Below are positions 1 to 49,556 of a stretch of 60,621 nucleotides of DNA, piece by piece. The stretch is from the NCBI GenBank assembly GCA_001785115.1, contig MFSU01000076.1, forward strand, positions 1 to 60,621, written 5' to 3'. A program made the translations under genes and the position numbers. The notes under the pieces are model-generated. The model was not told where the DNA came from. It saw only the letters and a program-made list of their open reading frames with translations, and searched no databases. Source of the DNA: Candidatus Muproteobacteria bacterium RBG_16_65_34 (GTDB lineage Bacteria > Pseudomonadota > Gammaproteobacteria > Acidiferrobacterales > Sulfurifustaceae). Each line of letters starts with the position of its first letter. Position 1 is the first letter of the stretch.

Positions 1-54
1 TCCATTCCCTTTATCTACGGTTGGGAGTTCGACGATGAAAAGTAGGGGAAACAT
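1..54 (-). CDS. 5' end of an unidentified CDS running off the window; its start overlaps the upstream stop (TGATG)
   Basis: Reverse-strand ATG at 54-52, then MFPLLFIVELPTVDKGNG..., open to position 1. Overlaps the stop of 54..464 by 1 nt. Confidence 0.3.
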   Translation of the reverse strand, partial: MFPLLFIVELPTVDKGNG

Positions 55-464
55 CAGGGGTCTCCCTCTGTAACTATGGCGAACCCACTTTCCCTTATCA
101 GCAGATCCATTCCACCGAAGTGAAGCTGTGCCTCAAGGGTCTTGCATGTTTCAGGGGGTGATAGAGTCCCAATGAAAGTGAAGCATGACCATCTCCATGC
201 GACGAAGGACCCAAGAACCCAACCGCGTACTTGCTTAGAAAAAACCTCGTAATACTTTTGATGATCTGGTGGTTCTTCCTTTTCGGCTAGGACGGTCACG
301 CGTGTTCCATGTGAGATTTGCCCAATTGCATTGCCACTCTTGGGTAGCGGGCCAGAGCGCTGCCAAACATTCACTTGTGGAACAACTACTTCGCCATACG
401 CGAGGGAATCTTGCGAAGTCTCTCGGCCATTAATCCAGGCGATTGTGGGATGCTGATTTGACAT
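54..464 (-). CDS. Hypothetical protein with a bacterial SH3-like segment
   Basis: 136-aa ORF. VNVWQRSGPLPKSGNAIGQISHGTRVTVL...VRGWVLGSFV resembles the SH3b pattern. Lies in the cassette array. Confidence 0.5.
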   Translation of the reverse strand: MSNQHPTIAWINGRETSQDSLAYGEVVVPQVNVWQRSGPLPKSGNAIGQISHGTRVTVLAEKEEPPDHQKYYEVFSKQVRGWVLGSFVAWRWSCFTFIGTLSPPETCKTLEAQLHFGGMDLLIRESGFAIVTEGDP

Positions 465-476
465 CGTTATACTGAT

Positions 477-528
477 CTTGAACCTAGGCGCGCCGTCTTT
501 GCGCGTTCGGTGGAACGAATGGTTAGCC
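477..528 (-). other. Short, degenerate attC-like site downstream of the Shedu-like gene
   Basis: In gene orientation it reads GGCTAAC...GCGC-aaagacg-GCGC...G|TTCAAG. GGCTAAC is complementary to the TTAGCC at the cassette start (1941-1946). It is only about 52 nt long and folds poorly. Confidence 0.35.
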
Positions 529-533
529 CTCGT

Positions 534-1925
534 CTATGGGACACGGGGGTAGTAGATCTGCGTGTCGCCGCCCGTGTCCCAAATTGGACCTAGTAGGTTC
601 TCGAAGACAGCTTTCGCGTTTTCATACACGTCGTCGTAAGTCATGATCCGTAGCTTCGGACTTTCGTTTGTCATGGTTTGTAGCTTGCGACGATCATTCG
701 GCAATAGTGACTGTGAACGACCGATGACAAGCAATCCGTTCGGATTGGGGGTTATGCCGGTGAGGCCAAGTTCTCGTTGCACAGTTTGCAGGTTGTCTTC
801 CAAGTACCGCTTCCAATCGATGATTTGACCGTGCGCACGTGTGAGATCGGCCGTGGGATGCCCGTCTTGGCGGAATAATGGTAAGTTTGAGCGCTCAAGC
901 TCCACGAGCACATAGTCCTGGGTGGCATCACGAAACACAAAATCTGTGACTTTGGCGCCGAGTGGTAGCTTGGGCCACATTCTGACGTGCGTTGGGCACA
1001 GGAGCACTGGGTTGTCCTGCAAGAAAGCCTGCAAGGCTTGCTCGCGTTCAGGATTCGAGTCAAGCAGAGCCTTGAACGCAGCCAGGAGCGTTGCGTATTG
1101 GCGACGAGCAGACGCTCGGGGGTCGAGCGTGCTCAACTGAGCGTCCTGTGTATGTGCAATCAGTGCGGCGCCGAGTACGTCATGCTCCGCCCACAGAGGA
1201 GCAAAATCAGCGTTCCACATTTCAGGCTTGAATCCAGGGAATACCTCGATGCATTCCCATCCAGCCATAAGGCGGATCGTAGAACGCGCAACAAACGGCT
1301 GGTTGGGTGTATCGGCTCTTGCTTCGGCGACTAGTTCCCCATGGATTTCAAGATCCAAGTGATTTCGCACAGATAAAAGGCAATAGGGTTTCGCGCCGGG
1401 CAGTTCGTCTTGCTGTAGCGAAAGGGGCTTCACCTGAAACCAGATGCGCGTCGCCACTATGTCCCGTGACGTTCCTTGTGAAGGAGAATGCACAGACAGT
1501 TTGAGCTCCACACCGAAGTTTGCATTCTGAGGATGAGGCAATTCGGGAGACTCAATGTGTACGAGATTCTGGGACAACAGTGCTGCGGCCTCCGCAATGC
1601 CTTGCGGCATGACGGTTACGACCAACTTTCGTTCGGCAAGTGTCTTCTTCTCATATCGAATAACGACTCCGTCAGTACAGATGGCAATCAGCAGATGCCC
1701 AGGGTTCGCCATGTACTCGGGAATCTTGTCGCGCAGGTGCGCATACTTTCCGTTGGCCAAGGTTTCGGTGGTCTTGATGTAGCTCTTAACAGAGGATGAA
1801 ACGGCGTCTGCAGTTGCTTCTTGCTCCGGCGTCCATGGTTCAGACGGCCCTTCGTTCAACTCAACAAACGCCATCGGATTGGAGCCCTCGAGTTTGAGCT
1901 GCCCCTTCTTGCGATCACGTGTCAT
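534..1925 (-). CDS. sduA: Shedu-like anti-phage nuclease: C-terminal DUF4263 (PD-(D/E)xK-type) domain with an unrecognised ~290-aa N-terminal region
   Basis: C-terminal ~170 aa follow the remembered DUF4263 pattern: EREQALQAFLQDNPVLL...VTDFVFRD...YVLVELERS...AHGQIIDWKRYL...GLLVIGRS...LRIMTYDDVYENA. Confidence 0.65.
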   Translation of the reverse strand: MTRDRKKGQLKLEGSNPMAFVELNEGPSEPWTPEQEATADAVSSSVKSYIKTTETLANGKYAHLRDKIPEYMANPGHLLIAICTDGVVIRYEKKTLAERKLVVTVMPQGIAEAAALLSQNLVHIESPELPHPQNANFGVELKLSVHSPSQGTSRDIVATRIWFQVKPLSLQQDELPGAKPYCLLSVRNHLDLEIHGELVAEARADTPNQPFVARSTIRLMAGWECIEVFPGFKPEMWNADFAPLWAEHDVLGAALIAHTQDAQLSTLDPRASARRQYATLLAAFKALLDSNPEREQALQAFLQDNPVLLCPTHVRMWPKLPLGAKVTDFVFRDATQDYVLVELERSNLPLFRQDGHPTADLTRAHGQIIDWKRYLEDNLQTVQRELGLTGITPNPNGLLVIGRSQSLLPNDRRKLQTMTNESPKLRIMTYDDVYENAKAVFENLLGPIWDTGGDTQIYYPRVP

Positions 1926-1940
1926 GTTGTGTCCCTCGAG

Positions 1941-2031
1941 GGCTAACGGTCCGGATGTGCGGCGCCGGCCAATGAAGTGTCAGGAAACACAGTGCGCTGT
2001 CCCCGGCGTCCGCACGAGCCGGGAGTTAGGT
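1941..2031 (-). other. attC-like recombination site (membrane-protein cassette)
   Basis: In gene orientation: ACCTAAC (overlaps the TAA stop) ... G|TTAGCC, 91 nt. The arms pair in three blocks (CCGG, GTGCGG, CGCCGG) with bulged bases. Confidence 0.6.
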
Positions 2032-2868
2032 TGGCTTTGTATATGAGGCACCCAGCGCCATAAGTGCCTCAAGAGAAAATCGCCTATAGAACTTTACAAA
2101 CGCCATAAACGTTACGTACGAGACCAATATACTTAGCGTCAGAAGCGCCACACTTTGTATTCCCGTAAAGGTCCCTCGCACAGCATGCCAGATAAGGCCC
2201 CAGAAAATGACCACTACCAGTAATGTGAGAGTACGCAAGAAGCCGTAGAGTGCAACGTAGTTTTGCATTTTTGGCAAATGATTTGGCGCATTCTCGACTG
2301 TGTAATGGTAGGCATACCGAAAATAGTCGTGCTCATCCGCGGTACCATATTCCGACGGCTTTTTGATGTTCGCATGTTCGATTACCAGCTTGTGTAATTT
2401 GTTTTTGAGTATGGCAATAAGAAGCGGGTCGAGCTTCTTCGCGTAGAGATCACGCAACCCTGCTTTTTCACCCAATAGCCAATCCATGGCTACTATCGGT
2501 GTAAGTAAAATAGCCACGATTGTTCTCATGACAATACGTATTCCGCGTTTTTCTCGAATTTCGAAGTAGCCATCAGGTGAAAGGTCGAGCAAATACTTCG
2601 ATGGGTAGCCGAACGCCCAAATTGAGTACCGCTCGACAGTAATGGATGACAGAAAGCTCAAAAGATGTCCGGTCGCATAGGCAACCAAGATGAACGGGAT
2701 ATAAACCTCGGGGGTTTTAGAACTCAGGGTGGCTGTGATGTAGCCCAGCACTGTTATGTCGGGCTGTGCATGTGCATATGCGGCCATCAACCCATACAGA
2801 AAAAGCGCACCAGGTGTGAAGTATCCTAAAAAATCGTATAGCGAAAAGGGATTCTGCTTAAGATCCAT
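2026..2868 (-). CDS. Hypothetical multi-pass membrane protein (cassette-borne)
   Basis: 280-aa ORF with several long hydrophobic stretches (for example FTPGALFLYGLMAAYA, IPFILVAYATGHLLSFL, LTLLVVVIFWGLIW). No family recognised. Confidence 0.55.
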   Translation of the reverse strand: MDLKQNPFSLYDFLGYFTPGALFLYGLMAAYAHAQPDITVLGYITATLSSKTPEVYIPFILVAYATGHLLSFLSSITVERYSIWAFGYPSKYLLDLSPDGYFEIREKRGIRIVMRTIVAILLTPIVAMDWLLGEKAGLRDLYAKKLDPLLIAILKNKLHKLVIEHANIKKPSEYGTADEHDYFRYAYHYTVENAPNHLPKMQNYVALYGFLRTLTLLVVVIFWGLIWHAVRGTFTGIQSVALLTLSILVSYVTFMAFVKFYRRFSLEALMALGASYTKPT

Positions 2869-2897
2869 CTGGGCGCTCCCTGATTGTTTTGTTGAAA

Positions 2898-2984
2898 ACC
2901 TAACGCCGTTTTAACCGGCGCGGGCCGCGAAAGTAAAACAATGCGCCGTCGTAACACCGTGTCCGGTTGAAAACATAGTTATGT
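2898..2984 (-). other. attC-like recombination site (PIN cassette)
   Basis: In gene orientation: ACATAAC (overlaps the TAA stop) ... G|TTAGGT, 87 nt. GTTTTCAACCGG pairs with CCGGTTAAAAC, leaving one bulged C. Confidence 0.6.
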
Positions 2985-3413
2985 TTGCTGCCAGTAAAGC
3001 ACATTGCAACCGTTGTTCTTAGCCACCTTGTGAAGGTGGTAGTCGGCCGTCAAGAGGGTATATCCGTTGTTGATCGCGATCTCCGCAATAAGCGCATCCA
3101 TGGTGTTATTGCGCTTTTCCCCATTCAACTGATTGAGCTCATTTCTCAACCTTTCGAAGAGATCGCCGTCACTCAGTTTTCCGTGGCCGATTCGAGATAC
3201 GCCAATTACAAAGGTTTCGGTAGGCACAACTTCTTCCACAGTGGTCGCGAACATTAGGAAAAGTTGTGCTCTTTTTTCCTCATCCTTGGTTCGATTCAAC
3301 TCGTCGATCTGAATATGCGACGCGACGAACTCGCCATCGGTGGGCAACTGATCAGGCGCGAGCACGCCATCAACCAATTTGTTCAAAATGCATGTATCGA
3401 CAACGTATTTCAT
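2979..3413 (-). CDS. PIN-domain protein (VapC-like toxin fold), with no adjacent antitoxin ORF
   Basis: Internal start MKYVVDTCILNKL (cat at 3411-3413). The acidic DT motif at the N-terminus and the ~144-aa size are typical of PIN domains. The longer 214-aa ORF-track version has an Arg-rich, implausible extension. Confidence 0.55.
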   Translation of the reverse strand: MKYVVDTCILNKLVDGVLAPDQLPTDGEFVASHIQIDELNRTKDEEKRAQLFLMFATTVEEVVPTETFVIGVSRIGHGKLSDGDLFERLRNELNQLNGEKRNNTMDALIAEIAINNGYTLLTADYHLHKVAKNNGCNVLYWQQT

Positions 3414-3660
3414 TGGCAAACATAACGACGATTCGACGGCCCATTGACCGATATCACCGAGGCGGCGCGAAGGCGGGAAGAGAAAGTCTGGAAGAATCAC
3501 ATCCTTGGCGCCGCACTGCCGGTACCCGGTCGGGAAATATACTGCAACTCTGCGGTATAACATACGCCGGGCGGGTGGATGGGCCGTGTAGCGCTGATAT
3601 CGGTGAGAACGGGAAGACCGCATTTTGGCGGCGGATCAAAGGGTTGGTGCGCTAAGGGGC

Positions 3661-3728
3661 GAGGACTGAGGACTGAGGGCTGAGGACTCAGAGGTTCACC
3701 GTTCACGGATCACGAATCACGAGTCACG
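3661..3728. repeat. Two abutting tandem heptamer arrays: GAGGACT x4 (3661-3688) and NNTCACG x5 (3694-3728)
   Basis: Direct reading: gaggact gaggact gagggct gaggact, then gttcacc gttcacg gatcacg aatcacg agtcacg. Confidence 0.9.
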
Positions 3729-3731
3729 GCC

Positions 3732-4106
3732 TCACAAGTACCGGATCGCAAAATAATTGCACAGCAGGTGCATCGTGTTGTCGGTGACGATCACGAGCCA
3801 CACCGACAGCCACGCGGGGGTGCTGTCCGCGTAGCCGGTGTAGGTGTGGAAGTCGCGCCAGTGCCGGGGGTCGCCGGCCATGTTCTTGGCCATGGCGACG
3901 TAGTGCGCCAGCCGGTAGCGGTCGATTACCGCGTGGGTGCCGAAGATCACGGCGAGCGCCGCGGGCGAGAGCGTGATCAGGGTGAAGGGGAGCGAGTAGA
4001 CGAAGGCGTGCAGGATCGCGACCGGCCACGAGCGGATCTTGTTCTCCGCCATGTGGCTGGTCTGGAGGATGTAGTCTCCAACCAGGTGCGCGAGGATCTG
4101 TTCCAT
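3732..4106 (-). CDS. DUF3307-family membrane protein
   Basis: 124 aa. AHLVGDYILQTSHMA and HAVIDRY motifs match the family pattern as remembered. Confidence 0.6.
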   Translation of the reverse strand: MEQILAHLVGDYILQTSHMAENKIRSWPVAILHAFVYSLPFTLITLSPAALAVIFGTHAVIDRYRLAHYVAMAKNMAGDPRHWRDFHTYTGYADSTPAWLSVWLVIVTDNTMHLLCNYFAIRYL

Positions 4107-4157: not shown

Positions 4158-5081
4158 TCACAGGTCAGGCCGGCCCCGCGCCGCGAAGGCCTCGCGGTGC
4201 CCGGCCAACTGCTCCGCCGTAAGCAAAAATACGCTCTCATCCCCGCTCGTGGTGGTGAGCCAGGTGAACGGGACCTCGGGGAAGGCCTGTTGCAGGGTCT
4301 CGCTGCTGTTGCCGACCTCGGCCACCAGGATGCCGCCGGGATTGAGGTGTTCGGGCGCCCGCGCCAGGATGCGGGTAATTACGTCGAGGCCGCTCGCCCC
4401 GGCCGCGAGCGCAAGCGCCGGCTCGTGGCGGTACTCCGCGGGCAGGGTCTCAAGCTCCGGGGTGGCGACGTACGGCGGGTTGGTGGCGATCAGATCGTAG
4501 CGCTCGCCCGCGAGTTCATCGAACAGATCGGATTGGATCACGCGCACCCGCTCGCGCAGCCCGTGGCGCTCGACGTTGAGGCGTGCGACCGCGAGCGCCT
4601 CGGCCGAGATATCGGTCGCGTCCACGCGCGCCGCGGGAAAGGAATGCGCCAGCGCCACCGCGATGCAGCCGCTCCCGGTGCAGAGATCGAGTGCGCGCCG
4701 CACCATTCCGGGATCGACCCACGGCTCGAAGCGCTCCAGGATGAATTCGCCGATGAGCGAGCGCGGCACGATCGTGCGCTCATCCACGTAGAACTTAAGG
4801 CCCGCGAACCAGACCGCGTTCAATAGATACGCCAGCGGCTTGCGGCTGCGGATGCGCTCGGCAACCAGCGCATGAATTCGCTCGCGCTGGGCGGGCGTGG
4901 GTTCATCCCCGAGGCGATCATCGAGCTCCTGCGGCTCGCACCCGAGCGCCGCGCCCACGAGCCAGGCGGCCTCGTCGAGCGCGTTGTCCGTGCCGTGACC
5001 GAAATAAAGCCCGGCCTCGACGAACCGGTCCTCGGTCCATTCGACAAAATCGGCGACCGTGCGCGGTGGGAGGCTGTTCAA
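4158..5081 (-). CDS. prmB: 50S ribosomal protein L3 N5-glutamine methyltransferase
   Basis: 307 aa. SAM-binding LDLCTGSGCIA, the NPPY motif (TNPPYV), and a PrmB-type N-terminus (FVEAGLYFGHGTDNALDEAAWLV). Confidence 0.85.
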   Translation of the reverse strand: MNSLPPRTVADFVEWTEDRFVEAGLYFGHGTDNALDEAAWLVGAALGCEPQELDDRLGDEPTPAQRERIHALVAERIRSRKPLAYLLNAVWFAGLKFYVDERTIVPRSLIGEFILERFEPWVDPGMVRRALDLCTGSGCIAVALAHSFPAARVDATDISAEALAVARLNVERHGLRERVRVIQSDLFDELAGERYDLIATNPPYVATPELETLPAEYRHEPALALAAGASGLDVITRILARAPEHLNPGGILVAEVGNSSETLQQAFPEVPFTWLTTTSGDESVFLLTAEQLAGHREAFAARGRPDL

Positions 5082-7704: not shown

Positions 7705-9184
7705 CTATTCAATAACCTTAATCATCTCGTCCGTCCCGGGCTCGCCGCCCGGGAAGCGATCGTTGAGCAGCCGCAGGACCGATTCGGCCCCGGCGCCGAG
7801 CGGCGATTTTTTTGCGAGCCCGGCGAACGTGTCGCCCCGCGCGCGCCGTGACGACACGGATGTGCAGCCCTTCCGCCAAGCGCCGCTCCGCCGCCGTGAG
7901 CGGATGCAGGCTGCGCGCGGTAGCGAGGAACAGGGGATCGACTCGGCCCAGGGCGTCGGCGGCGCGGGTCGCGCCGTAGAACGTGAACGCCCGGTTTTCG
8001 TGGTACACCACGATCACGCGGGTGTCGCGTGGGCCGAAAGGCGTATTCAAGCGCACGACCGCCGTGTGCGCGGGCAACGCGCTGCCTTCGAGCGGAGCCT
8101 CGTCCATGAGGTTCGTAAGTTTGAGGCGCTGCTGCATGTATTCGCGCGGGCTCAGGCGCCGGTTCAGATCCTCCATACGCAACTGCATGGACGCCGCCTG
8201 GTCCGGGCTGGAGGCGAGGACGGCCTGCGGCGTGTTCTCCACGCGCCAGCCCGCGGGGAAACGGAGCGCGAAGTTGAGGTCGCGGTGATAAAACTCGGCC
8301 CCGCGGCCGATGCCCTGGCGGGCGCTCTCGCCGAACGTGAGCTTGTCGAGGTAACGCAGGTAGTCGGCGCGCGCCGTGCGGACGGCGGCCGCGGTTTTGA
8401 ACTTGTCCGCCTCGGCCACCACCTCCTGCAGCCGCCGGTCGTTGCTCGGGTGGGTGGCGAAGACACCGTGGTAGACGCGCGGCTCGCGCCCTTCTTCCTT
8501 GGCGCGCTGTTTCTCGAACTCCTCCTGGTTTTTGAGCACGCCGACGACGCCGATCATAGCGTGCGGATCGAAGCCCGTGCGCGCCAGATACTCGGCCCCC
8601 AGCCGGTCGGACTCAAGCTCGTGGTCGCGCCCGTAACCCGAGAGCAGCGCGTTGCCGATCACGTTCATGAGCTGCTGCCCGGCCTGGCTACCGAGTTCCG
8701 GCACCACGGCCGACAGGATATTGGCGCCGATGCTGGCGGCGGTCGCCGCGGTATATTGGCGCACCGCATGGCGCGCGGTCACGTGGCCGACCTCGTGGCC
8801 CAGCACCGCGGCGAGCTCAGCCTCGGAGTTCAAGTAGGCGAGAATCCCGCGGGTGATGTAGATGTAGCCGCCGGGGAGCGCAAAGGCGTTGACCTCCGGT
8901 GAATCGAGCACCGTGAAGCGGTACACCAGTCCCGGGCGGTGGCTGTGCGTGGCGAGCTGTTCGCCCACCCGCTGCACGTAGGCCTGAAGCGCGGAGTCGT
9001 CATAGACACCATATTGGGCGCGGATCTTCGGGTCGTTCGCCCGCCCGAGCGCGATCTCCTCGTCCTCGGACATGAGCACGATGTCCTTCCCGCCCGTGAC
9101 CGGGTTGGTGGCGCAGGCGGTCACGACGCCTGCGATCACGGCGACTCCGAGGAGATATCGCAACAGGTGTGACGGTCGAGCCAT
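7705..9184 (-). CDS. M48-family zinc metallopeptidase with signal/lipoprotein-like N-terminus; its LysM-like C-terminal tail is interrupted by an apparent 1-nt frameshift
   Basis: HEVGH motif (LGHEVGHVTARH). The annotated frame ends in an Arg-rich tail. The alternate frame from about 7850 reads GDTFAGLAKKSPLGAGAESVLRLLNDRFPGGEPGTDEMIKVIE and stops at 7705-7707. Confidence 0.75.
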
Positions 9185-9277: not shown

Positions 9278-9584
9278 TTACCATGGCCGGGTGCGGCAGC
9301 CGCATGCGCGCTTCCCATGGTTGTGGCGTTCGTCATCGAGCATGAGCTCGACGAGCCGCGCCCGCGCCGCGCGCGCCAGCGGCTGATTCGGAGTTCCGTC
9401 CCGCCCAAAACTCGGGGGTGTTGACGCCGATGAGGCGTACGTGGCGGCCCTCCGTGAGCACGATGGTGTCGCCGTCGATGACCTGCGCGACCAGCGCGGG
9501 GACGGCAAAGGCCGCCGGGAGCCAGACCCAAAATAAAAGGGCGCCCGCGATGAGCGCCCTTTCTCTAGACACGAACCGCGCCAA
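9278..9584 (-). pseudogene. Thermonuclease (SNase-like) family remnant, frameshifted and short
   Basis: The N-terminal part QVIDGDTIVLTEGRHVRLIGVNTPE matches the SNase pattern. The reading continues in another frame (FGRDGTPNQPLARAARARLVELM) after the A4 run at 9407-9410. The total is only about 100 aa. Confidence 0.45.
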
Positions 9585-28202: not shown

Positions 28203-28295
28203 CAGGATTAACAGGATTTTTCAGGATTAACAGGATTAAAGCAATTTTTTGAAGTGAAGTAATCCTGTGAATCCTGAAAAATCCTGTTAATCCTG
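28203..28295. repeat. CAGGATT-family hairpin: CAGGATT x4 / AATCCTG x4, ~36-bp stem with one mismatch and a 23-nt loop
   Basis: The right arm plus one base (28261-28296) is identical to 47100-47135. Confidence 0.95.
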
Positions 28296-33763: not shown

Positions 33764-33790
33764 GGGTTATCCTAAAAACGGCATTTGAAC

Positions 33791-33905
33791 CGCCAAGACG
33801 CCAAGATCGCCAAGAGAATCAAAACGCTAAGAATGAAATGCGGCACACCAATTGGGTGACGCACTTTTGGGGCGTAAGTCGTGCATTCACTTGGCGTCCT
33901 TGGCG
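33791..33905. repeat. Hairpin arms CGCCAAG x3 (8-9 nt period) / CTTGGCG x2 with a ~75-nt loop
   Basis: cgccaag at 33791, 33799 and 33808; cttggcg at 33890 and 33899. Confidence 0.8.
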
Positions 33906-33932
33906 GTTAGACTGCTTTTTCTAGGATTAAAT

Positions 33933-36807: not shown

Positions 36808-36829
36808 TTTTACTCCTTTAAAACTGCGT

Positions 36830-36910
36830 AACCGCAGATGAACACGGATAAACGCAGATAAAAATCAAAACAGATTCGGCTTTTTCAATAATCTGCGTTT
36901 ATCTGCGGTT
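36830..36910. repeat. AACGCAGAT-family hairpin: decamers x3 / inverted decamers x2
   Basis: aaccgcagat gaacacggat aaacgcagat ... atctgcgttt atctgcggtt. Abuts the aroQ stop. Confidence 0.9.
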
Positions 36911-37354
36911 TCACTTCTTTTTTAGTTTTTCAATCGCTGCGGCAAGGGCCAGCTCGTAGCCCTGGGCCCCGAGGCCACTGATTACGCCCGCGGCGAGGTC
37001 GGAGAAGTACGAATGCTTGCGGAACGACTCGCGGGCGTGCACGTTGGAGAGATGGACCTCGATGAAGGGGATCTTGGCCGCCGCCAGCGTGTCGCGCAGC
37101 GCGATACTTGTGTGGGTAAAGGCGGCGGGGTTGATAACGATGAATGCCACGCCTTCTTTCATCGCCTGCTGGACCCGCCCAACGAGTTCGTGCTCGGCGT
37201 TGCTCTGGAAAAACCCAATCCGGTGTCCCGCCGCTTCGGCCTGCTGCGCCAGACGCGCGTTGATGCGCTCGAGGGTGTCCGCGCCATAGTGCTCCGGCTC
37301 GCGTTCGCCGAGCAGGTTCAAGTTGGGACCATTCAGGACCAGCAGTTCAGCCAT
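36911..37354 (-). CDS. aroQ: Type II 3-dehydroquinate dehydratase
   Basis: 147 aa, [20 protein letters not shown]. Confidence 0.95.
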
Positions 37355-38109: not shown

Positions 38110-38123
38110 GAGTGGCTCATAAA

Positions 38124-38210
38124 CGGTGAACAGTGATCCGTGAACCGGGAACAATAGGCGGCTGTGTTTTCGGTTTACCGATCACCGATTACCGTTCACT
38201 GTTCACGGCT
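38124..38210. repeat. GTGA-family hairpin of heptamers: CGGTGAA-type x4 / (T/C)ACCGAT, CACTGTT-type x5
   Basis: cggtgaa cagtgat ccgtgaa ccgggaa ... taccgat caccgat taccgtt cactgtt cacggct. Confidence 0.9.
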
Positions 38211-47046: not shown

Positions 47047-47134
47047 ACAGGATTAACAGGATTAAAAACAGGATTAACAGGATTAAGGCTTTTAAGAATT
47101 AATCCTGTGAATCCTGAAAAATCCTGTTAATCCT
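47047..47134. repeat. CAGGATT-family hairpin, followed by a T7 run (probable glnE terminator)
   Basis: CAGGATT x4 / AATCCTG x4, then gaattcctttttttgg. Confidence 0.9.
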
Positions 47135-48086: not shown

Positions 48087-48094
48087 GGCGACCA

Positions 48095-48189
48095 GGGACG
48101 AGATACGAGATACGAGGGACGAGGGGCAACGTCTTTTATGAACAAGTGCCTTATCCACATTCCCTCGCACCTCGCACCTCGCCCCTCGT
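48095..48189. repeat. Hairpin of heptamers: GGGACGA/GATACGA x5 / NCCTCGC x4
   Basis: gggacga gatacga gatacga gggacga ggggcaa ... ccctcgc acctcgc acctcgc ccctcgt. Confidence 0.9.
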
Positions 48190-48215
48190 ATCTATTTTCC
48201 TGAAGGAATCCGACA

Positions 48216-48422: not shown

Positions 48423-48432
48423 GATGATTAAC

Positions 48433-48491
48433 CACAGAGGACACAGAGTTTGTAAAGACCAAGATCCTCTGTGCCCTCTGTGATCTCCGTG
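48433..48491. repeat. CACAGAG-family hairpin: CACAGAG x2 / CTCTGTG x2 + CTCCGTG
   Basis: 9-nt period. Overlaps the ORF-track start of waaF. Confidence 0.9.
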
Positions 48492-49556
48492 GTGAAAGAG
48501 CGCATTAGATTTTTGATCGTCGGCCCGTCCTGGGTCGGCGACATGGTGCTGGCGCAGAGCCTGTTCCGGCTGCTCAAACAGCGCCACCCCGAATGTCGTA
48601 TCGACGTGCTGGCGCCCGAATGGACGTTTCCCCTGTTGGCGCGCATGCCGGAGGTGGCCGAGGCGATCCCGGCGCCGTTTCGCCACGGCGCGCTCGCGTT
48701 GGCGAAGCGCTGGCGTCTCGGGCGGGCGTTGCGCGCGCGAAACTACGACCGCGCGATCGTGCTGCCGAACTCGCTCAAGTCGGCGATCGTCCCGTTCGCC
48801 GCGCGCGCCCGCGTGCGCACCGGCTTCGTCGGCGAGCTGCGCTACGGGCTGCTCAACGACGCGCGCCGCCTCGATAAGACCGAACTCCCGCGCACCGTGG
48901 ACCGGTTCGTGGCGCTCGGAATCGAGTCGGGCGAGGCGTTGCCGGAGATTCCCCAACCGTGGCTCGAGGCGGATGCGGACAGCGCTCGCGCCGCGCTTGT
49001 GCGCCTCGGCCGCGGCCTTCCGAAAACTCCGGTGCTCGGTTTGTGCCCCGGCGCCGAGTACGGTCCCGCCAAGCGCTGGCCGGCGGAATATTTTGCCGAC
49101 GTCGCCAGGACGAAACTCGCAGAAGGCTGGGAGGTGTGGCTGTTCGGTTCGGACCAGGACGCGCCCGTGACCCTTGCGATTCAATCCCTGACCCAGGGGG
49201 GCTGCCTCGACCTCGGCGGCAAGACCGCGCTTGCCGAGGCGATCGATCTGATGTCGCTGACAACCGCCGTCGTGACCAACGATTCCGGGCTCATGCACGT
49301 CGCGGCCGCGCTCGGGCGCCGCGTCGTCGCGATTTACGGGTCTTCGGATCCCGGCCACACGCCGCCCTTGAGCGACAAGGCCACCATGCGCTATCTCGGC
49401 CTATCGTGTAGCCCGTGTTTCCAACGCGAGTGTCCGCTGGGGCATCTCAGGTGCCTTCGCGATATCGCCCCGGGTCTTGTGCTTGAGAGTTTGTCGGAGG
49501 CAAGTGGTAAGATGCCCGAGAAAAGAGCAAAGGACAAAGAGAAAAGGGAAGGATAA
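48489..49556 (+). CDS. waaF: ADP-heptose:LPS heptosyltransferase II
   Basis: RFLIVGPSWVGDMVLAQSLF, VLPNSLKSA and VTNDSGLMHVAAA motifs. A GTG start at 48489/48492 is preferred over 48471, which lies in the repeat. Confidence 0.85.
   Translation: MVKERIRFLIVGPSWVGDMVLAQSLFRLLKQRHPECRIDVLAPEWTFPLLARMPEVAEAIPAPFRHGALALAKRWRLGRALRARNYDRAIVLPNSLKSAIVPFAARARVRTGFVGELRYGLLNDARRLDKTELPRTVDRFVALGIESGEALPEIPQPWLEADADSARAALVRLGRGLPKTPVLGLCPGAEYGPAKRWPAEYFADVARTKLAEGWEVWLFGSDQDAPVTLAIQSLTQGGCLDLGGKTALAEAIDLMSLTTAVVTNDSGLMHVAAALGRRVVAIYGSSDPGHTPPLSDKATMRYLGLSCSPCFQRECPLGHLRCLRDIAPGLVLESLSEASGKMPEKRAKDKEKREG

Follow-up and report, generated by a model that had tools for sequence, protein, structure and literature searches.

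A Shedu-bearing cassette array without an adjacent integrase, probably the integrase-proximal end of a chromosomal integron array

Does the block of four co-oriented open reading frames (ORFs) at the start of contig MFSU01000076.1, one of which encodes a Shedu nuclease, belong to the chromosome in which it lies, or is it an array of integron cassettes with no integrase at its side? The stretch analyzed here (hereafter the window) comprises positions 1-60,621 of this contig, and the block occupies positions 1-3653, with all of its ORFs on the minus strand. Integron cassettes enter and leave an array as circles through IntI, a tyrosine recombinase whose substrate is the attC site in the form of its folded bottom strand, cut at G↓TT (the arrow marks the cut), and because of this circular excision and insertion, the first bases of a cassette complement its own last bases. 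By analogy, the units of the window would each be an ORF followed by an attC recombination site, inserted by IntI at G↓TT of a folded bottom-strand attC. Our analysis makes it very probable that positions 1-3653 are the integrase-proximal end of a chromosomal integron cassette array without an adjacent integrase, that is, of a cluster of attC sites lacking integron-integrase (CALIN), and this array seems to be decaying. An earlier reading of the same DNA (the original prediction) had counted four co-oriented minus-strand ORFs; all are present, although the fourth (54-464) has to be corrected to a truncated allele (Table 1).

On the minus strand, the PIN cassette begins with GTTATGTTTGC (3426-3416) and ends with GCAAACATAAC (2988-2978), while the membrane-protein cassette runs from GTTAGGTT (2904-2897) to AACCTAAC (2032-2025) and the Shedu cassette from GTTAGCCCTCG (1947-1937) to CGAGGGCTAAC (532-522), the last thus extending from G↓TTAGCC (1947) to GGCTAAC (522). 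All boundary sequences quoted in the original prediction were found where it had placed them; for the membrane-protein cassette the positions held, but the complementarity is 8 nt, 1 nt beyond the figure given there. Repeat length alone is not significant here, since as many as 27 inverted pairs of 10-11 nt occur within 3.7 kb; what makes the boundary repeats significant is rather their position and the surrounding architecture. Plain inverted-repeat and arm-alignment scans were dropped as non-discriminating, as palindromes of the heptamer arrays took the top ranks.

Table 1. Coordinates of the features of the cassette array and its upstream edge in the window.
Feature	Positions	Strand	Basis or remark
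attC1, 87 nt: R'' ACATAAC, 5-nt spacer, L'' TTT(C)AACCGG, L' CCGGTTAAA, 5-nt spacer, R' GTTAGGT	2898-2984	minus	models and fold
attC2, 91 nt: R'' ACCTAAC, TCCCG, L'' GCT(C)GTGCGG, L' CCGCACATC, CGGACC, R' GTTAGCC	1941-2031	minus	architecture and fold
Degenerate attC3: R'' CGAGGGCTAAC, L''-like arm GTTCCACCGA, hairpin GCGCAAAGACGGCGC	465-532	minus	L' and R' absent
Core G↓TTATGT (R'-type), start of PIN cassette	3420-3426	minus	homology of the PIN cassette in L029 begins at 3428
PIN/Fcf1-like nuclease ORF, 144 aa	2979-3413	minus	Pfam PIN E=3.5e-4, under curated cut-off
Multi-pass membrane protein ORF, 280 aa	2026-2868	minus	no Pfam family; cassette start G↓TTAGGT 2904-2898, TAA within R'' ACCTAAC
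Shedu nuclease SduA, 463 aa	534-1925	minus	Pfam SduA_C PF14082 3.7e-21; PADLOC SduA 7e-28
Truncated allele (136 aa) of 328-aa SH3 + DUF8168_C gene	54-464	minus	Pfam SH3_3 1.6e-5
Sequence diverging from the common population allele	1-57	minus	junction coincides with contig end
Non-coding leader, 227 bp, upstream of first cassette	3427-3653	minus	conserved with the array in L007 despite a different left flank
Tandem heptamer arrays, upstream edge of AT-richer island	3661-3730	minus	GC rises across the region, from 0.52-0.57 (below about 3800) to 0.63-0.69 (core genes)

The imperfect palindromes with bulged bases that had been predicted are seen in both long spacers, which fold with R'' and R' paired, with L'' and L' forming a stem, and with a single bulged base on the 5' arm. 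The architecture of an attC site, i.e. paired AAC/GTT R boxes, an extrahelical base and a length of some 57-141 nt, is found at attC1 and attC2, and is lacking at 465-532. The layout of attC2 is the canonical 7-5-(3+bulge+6)...(6+3)-6-7 and its fold has a z-score of about -3.1; its L-box sequence is divergent, and this site is backed mainly by its architecture.

In order to score the spacers, attC covariance models were derived from independent bona fide sites. Model R1 combines attC sites of Luteimonas with one soil site, while R3 is built on 15 sites, namely ten attCs of class 1 cassettes, two from soil and three from Luteimonas. The class 1 sites were cut from plasmid integrons (aadA1, aadA2, cmlA1, VIM-2, aacA4, arr-3, estX, dfrA5, dfrA14 and aac(6')-29a), the Luteimonas sites come from a locus with 31 classical attC sites in Luteimonas sp. 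Sa2BVA3 (L028; compared loci are given by such L numbers) that was reached via a homologue of the membrane protein, and an exact-pattern scan provided a canonical site from a soil metagenome (L020). On bona fide cassettes, R1 gives 37.3 bits for cmlA1, 30.0 for VIM-2, 22.8 for aacA4 and 20.0 for arr-3. It misses the attCs of estX, dfrA5 and dfrA14, showing a bias toward aadA-type sites, and because of this bias and these misses of known sites, the absence of an R1 match is weak evidence. A model confined to the arms (R2, 50 positions) was discarded since it penalized the long central insert so heavily that attC1 was lost as well, and a first rule-based scanner was discarded because its forced-pair constraint was ineffective and its output noisy.

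The model match that had been predicted at 2898-2984 on the minus strand was obtained at exactly these coordinates. With R1, attC1 reaches 27.9 bits (E ~1e-4) and is the sole match under E=0.9 on both strands of the window; with R3 it reaches 30.7 bits (E=5e-5), and is the sole significant match in 60.6 kb. Judged by its sequence, attC1 thus scores like functional attC sites do. Furthermore, an architecture filter that asks for AAC/GTT anchors, at least 5/7 R-box pairs, spacers of 4-6 and 4-7 nt, and an L box of 3+bulge+6 with at least 8/9 Watson-Crick pairs, passes both long spacers (2898-2984 and 1941-2031) on the correct strand, against a background of 1.05 hits per Markov-simulated 60.6-kb window (both strands) with a maximum of 3.

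So could these hairpins not be terminators or repeats that resemble attC by chance, within an ordinary defense island that has nothing to do with integrons? Intergenic palindromes are abundant, the heptamer arrays outrank the attC candidates in an inverted-repeat scan, attC2 and attC3 stay below model significance, and one terminator-like pattern overlaps attC1. However, models made from unrelated attCs pick exactly 2898-2984, and on the cassette strand only, while the palindromes of the heptamer arrays lack the R/L-box architecture and score at most 10.7 bits (R3). Comparison between genomes also speaks against chance: homology breaks at G↓TT and AAC, and the same cassettes occur in a classical Luteimonas array and beside significant attCs in L043 and L045. 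We therefore disfavor an explanation by chance hairpins, and consider it very improbable.

It is this recurrence of the cassettes as discrete homology units that is, on the sequences compared, the strongest evidence for an array. The SduA cassette is 89.9% identical at the nucleotide level to L043 over 1428 nt (window 1948-521), a block that opens with the G of G↓TTAGCC and closes with the C of GGCTAAC, and in L043 the GGCTAAC after SduA opens a complete attC that scores 25.6 bits with R3. There, and in L044 (likewise 89.9% identical), SduA is a single gene between core genes, and model-significant attC sites lie beside the SduA homologues in L043 and L045. For the PIN cassette, homology with L029 amounts to 77% over 532 nt (window 3428-2900), covering the ORF and the entire attC and stopping in the next core; the PIN homologue, 85% identical at the amino acid level in L029 and L030, sits there behind a different cassette and attC-like site. 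Moreover, its ends have changed in a compensatory manner, from GTTATGTTTGC and GCAAACATAAC in the window to GTTATATTTGC and GCAAATATAAC in L029. The Luteimonas homologue of the membrane gene (54% identity) is one cassette of the 31-attC array in L028, starting with G↓TTAGGTTGCTGG and ending with CCAGCAACCTAAC, and its boundary positions relative to the ORF match those in the window; both cassettes have their stop within R'' ACCTAAC and start at G↓TTAGGT. None of the loci with homologues (L043/L044, L029/L030 and Luteimonas L028) shows a conserved order of the cassette genes.

Homologous cassettes in different hosts keep their start and their R'' core, while their attC bodies are unrelated from the first base after AAC. 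For SduA, with 90% nucleotide identity up to this point, GGCTAAC is followed by CATTCG in the window and by CCGCGG in L043 (window 522-532 versus L043 11398-11405), and for the membrane gene, ACCTAAC is followed by TCCCGG in the window and by AAGTCA in Luteimonas (window 2025-2032 versus L028 10829-10836). One explanation would be that recombination at the R'' core, for instance in rare top-strand events, swaps attC bodies among cassettes. If true, the sequences would directly document the way in which ORFs gain host-specific attCs, and thus bear on the genesis of cassettes, but we think it improbable. A simpler account is coding constraint combined with ordinary divergence or deletion, which could produce this pattern since the stop codon lies inside R''. 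Either way, cassette pairs with shared cores and different attC bodies can serve in studies of attC evolution.

The array is foreign to its chromosomal locus, given its lower GC content and its absence from the equivalent locus of the closest available genome. In 400-bp windows, GC is 0.44-0.58 up to about position 3800 and 0.63-0.69 in the flanking core genes, which bears out the AT-richer block that had been described. The nearest genome with the DUF3307 neighbor (77% amino acid identity), a metagenome-assembled genome of the Acidiferrobacterales, carries at this place MFS, polA, LOG-like and thrB-like genes and zero cassettes; the comparison in relatives that the original prediction had proposed thus came out in its favor. 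Could the block nonetheless be an operon inherited vertically in the host lineage? It is true that the genes are co-oriented with the core genes upstream, prmB and DUF3307, and that the block is stable across many metagenome samples. However, its GC is about 10-15 points below that of the neighboring core genes, it is absent from the locus of the nearest relative, the closest homologues of each gene are found in unrelated taxa and contexts, and a different left flank exists in L007. The joint outcome that would have pointed to such an operon, failure of the attC models together with a gene order conserved in distant relatives, did not occur, as attC1 is detected and gene order differs. The absence from the nearest relative's locus and the homology breaks at the cassette ends effectively refute vertical inheritance as an operon. 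At window position 3653, by the heptamer arrays, contig L007 changes over: its copy of leader and array (99.7% identical) adjoins a GC-rich left flank unlike that of the window. A strain variant or a second copy may account for this flank, or else recombination at the heptamer arrays. It encodes a ribbon-helix-helix antitoxin and a VapC-type PIN toxin (vapBC-like; L007 1-870).

The locus is carried by ten metagenome contigs, most of them about 99.7-100% identical to the window and one 98.9%. Two of these (L001 and L021, >99.8% identical) prolong the array by 4.3 kb or more beyond position 1 of the window. The heptamer edge near 3661 that had been taken as one limit of the array stands, but the real array is far longer than the window shows. 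Its extension carries the 328-aa SH3+DUF8168_C gene in intact form, a CopG-like ORF, ORFs of 223 aa and 86 aa, and a type II restriction-modification module composed of a D12 methyltransferase, a helix-turn-helix (HTH) controller and a 263-aa endonuclease candidate. In L021 (150-2147), the D12-class adenine methyltransferase on the opposite strand, the 81-aa HTH controller and the endonuclease candidate form one large cassette-like unit, with G↓TTAGGG as one boundary and an attC-like hairpin, CCCTGAC...GTTGGCT, as the other. The 223-aa cassette starts with GTTGGGC and ends with GCCCAAC, and attC-like hairpins are also present behind the 86-aa ORF and behind the restriction-modification module. 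With R3, attCs in L001 (99.9% identical) are significant at 4768-4854, 8702-8759 and 9481-9539. By the surrogate models, the extended locus thus has two or more clustered attCs, while the window alone has one significant and one weak site. At two downstream attC sites GAC replaces AAC, a variant also seen at the distal end of the Luteimonas array. The 22-nt core of attC3 recurs in canonical attCs of L001 (9481-9539) and L020 (632-693), and in L022.

The window departs from most of the other contigs at position 58, inside the 328-aa gene, which the majority of contigs from the population carry in intact form (e.g. L001 7288-8274). A counterpart of the window allele is found in L008 (4881-5018). 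Past position 1, the window's own allele could be followed for 80 further bases (137 nt divergent in all), and this sequence had no match among the compared sequences.

What, then, became of the integrase? A tblastn search with IntI1 at E<=10 gave zero matches in the 60.6-kb window. The query proved 100% identical to plasmid intI1, and the search leaves 57 kb of sequence on the expected, higher-coordinate side without intI, in agreement with the original prediction. Nor were the other parts of a complete integron, attI and a Pc promoter upstream of the first cassette, found, as the leader carries no recognizable trace of them. Without a local intI, the array would be static unless IntI acts in trans, and the degenerate attC sites would reflect decay, with the 3' half of attC3 lost and GAC in place of AAC at the two downstream sites.

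L022, a contig of a related organism, bears on this question. It shares waaF with the window (74% identical to 48507-48910), and abutting this gene is a 54-aa C-terminal remnant of intI (1926-2081), 65% identical to IntI1 residues 277-330. Furthermore, a 28-nt attC-derived element, TCCACCGAACGCGCAAAGACGGCGCGCC, occurs both in L022 (1310-1341, just upstream of an ORF start) and in the window (487-514). The intI remnant and the shared element indicate that integron machinery has existed in this group. Two outward-facing genes lie near the remnant in L022, and the window's own waaF has no adjacent integron.

It may be asked whether the array is still active, served in trans by an intI elsewhere in the genome, or separated from its intI by a rearrangement. 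In support, attC1 looks intact and scores like functional attCs, the related L022 has an intI remnant beside waaF, and CALINs are reported to be mobilizable in trans (bioRxiv 10.1101/2025.06.18.660453). Conversely, the 57 kb on the expected side contain no intI, degeneracy is seen at several attC sites, and the intI of L022 is a remnant of 54 aa only. In addition, cassette order does not vary among the ten contigs, which come from several samples and are about 99-100% identical, and there is no gain or loss of cassettes, the truncated 54-464 allele aside. Continued activity is thus unlikely, though it retains appreciable weight as an alternative to a static, decaying array.

We must however take into account several points that weigh against reading the block as an integron array. 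The models are surrogates, not IntegronFinder's model, and of the three spacers in the window, only one reaches genome-wide significance with them. For the match predicted at 1941-2031 on the minus strand, R3 aligned attC2 over its full length at exactly these coordinates and the architecture agreed, but the score of 8.1 bits is not significant, and a T-A pair occupies an L-box position that is A-T in all 15 training sites. As for attC3, the predicted end of the Shedu cassette, GGCTAAC at 528-522, is present, but the attC beyond it is incomplete, its 3' half being lost and a 5' remnant left; no significant model match was obtained there (R3 4.1 bits, in a 167-nt alignment at 362-528). Some membrane, PIN and SduA homologues lie in contexts with no attC seen, and for this reason the cassette genes are not exclusively cassette-borne; clear attC sites were not found in the Thioalkalivibrio and Pseudomonas contexts of the membrane gene. 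When the leader was considered as an attI or intI remnant, no match to the covariance models, IntI1 or the L022 junction and none of promoter-like character was recognized, so that neither attI nor Pc could be placed in it. The intI search covers the 60.6-kb window alone, and the rest of the source genome may hold intI. Lastly, the extension contigs are all from one population and add length rather than independent evolutionary evidence.

How does the array compare with known systems? The term CALIN was introduced by Cury et al. 2016 for attC-site clusters that lack an integron-integrase, according to bioRxiv 10.1101/2025.06.18.660453 and 10.1101/2024.07.02.601686. Like these, the window array consists of co-oriented ORF-attC units on a chromosome, with no intI nearby, no recognizable platform and some decayed attCs. 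It differs in having been found with surrogate attC models, in its host, an uncultured Acidiferrobacterales-like gammaproteobacterium, and in its conserved 227-bp leader that abuts a heptamer-repeat array. With the sedentary chromosomal integrons of the Xanthomonadaceae (Luteimonas L028; Xanthomonas ilvD-linked) it shares the membrane-protein cassette with identical boundary positions, and with the Luteimonas array also the R''/L'' box consensus with a bulged C and the ACATAAC/GTTATGT core variant. However, the Luteimonas attCs are highly homogeneous (60-nt and 112-nt types), whereas those of the window are heterogeneous in length and sequence, in which they resemble mobile integrons or CALINs of mixed origin, with no integrase context visible. 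A SALIN, or secondary-site 'attG' insertion, is resembled by the solo SduA cassette with its own attC between core genes in L043 and L044, whereas the window holds a multi-cassette array and not a single insertion. In L043 (9929-11475; also L044), the SduA cassette lies between a PALP-enzyme gene and an HTH gene, with a perfect 27-nt palindrome, GCATAACCTGTCCAGGACAGGTTATGC, directly upstream in L043 and the complete attC after the gene, and this arrangement suggests that a single cassette was inserted at a secondary site.

According to Darracq et al. (bioRxiv 10.1101/2024.07.02.601686), Shedu ranks second in frequency among the known defense systems of integrons, where genes of restriction-modification and toxin-antitoxin systems are enriched as well, and cassettes of Shedu and restriction-modification have been reported in Xanthomonas arrays (bioRxiv 10.1101/2025.06.18.660453). 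The present locus likewise combines a single-gene Shedu cassette and a restriction-modification cassette in one array, but unlike in the described anti-phage cassettes, its defense role is a prediction from gene annotation, and any such role of the PIN, membrane and SH3/DUF8168 genes would be putative. CALINs and Shedu cassettes being already documented, the array is a further example, and knowledge of integron function is unchanged by it. What it adds is an integrase-less array with defense cargo (Shedu, restriction-modification, PIN) in an uncultured lineage of the sulfur/iron-oxidizer-type, Acidiferrobacterales-like bacteria, which fits the view of integron cassettes as stores of compact anti-phage genes.

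Among the cargo, the assignment of SduA follows from its SduA_C/DUF4263 nuclease domain, the defining feature of Shedu, and residues D328, E342 and E344 are invariant in ten homologues. A two-gene system of SduA and the SH3/DUF8168 gene was ruled out, as the SduA homologues in L043, L045 and L046 neighbor other genes. The PIN ORF matches PF01850 weakly (21.6 bits, with a cut-off of 23.6) and has no antitoxin gene adjacent; its homologues (n=221) are mostly 143-144 aa long, and several of them, 55-65% identical, carry a precomputed PF01850 assignment. The 280-aa membrane protein has 895 homologues at E<=1e-5, including proteins of Thioalkalivibrio, Pseudomonas, Luteimonas and Sideroxydans, and gives a weak PADLOC match (8.9e-7) to Csx27, an accessory protein of type VI-B CRISPR systems. 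It may be an uncharacterized defense or accessory gene, and this widespread cassette family without a Pfam entry is a candidate for functional tests. Going by its gene content, the array may act as a small defense island, and it would probably be expressed via read-through from the co-oriented genes upstream or from an unrecognized promoter in the leader.

Rfam gave zero matches at positions 1-3700, its sole match in the entire window being a group II intron catalytic domain (RF00029; 16949-17023, minus strand, 42.9 bits). Heptamer arrays like those at the upstream edge of the cassettes occur in many intergenic spacers of the window, namely at 28206-28292, 33784-33912, 36826-36914, 38118-38207, 47051-47132, 48090-48190 and 48430-48500, as well as in L024 (2420-2540). 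Often an array is followed by its inverse, giving rise to long palindromes, and each locus has a heptamer of its own, such as CAGGATT or GTGA(A/T)TC; similar CAGGATT arrays are present in Thioalkalivibrio denitrificans.

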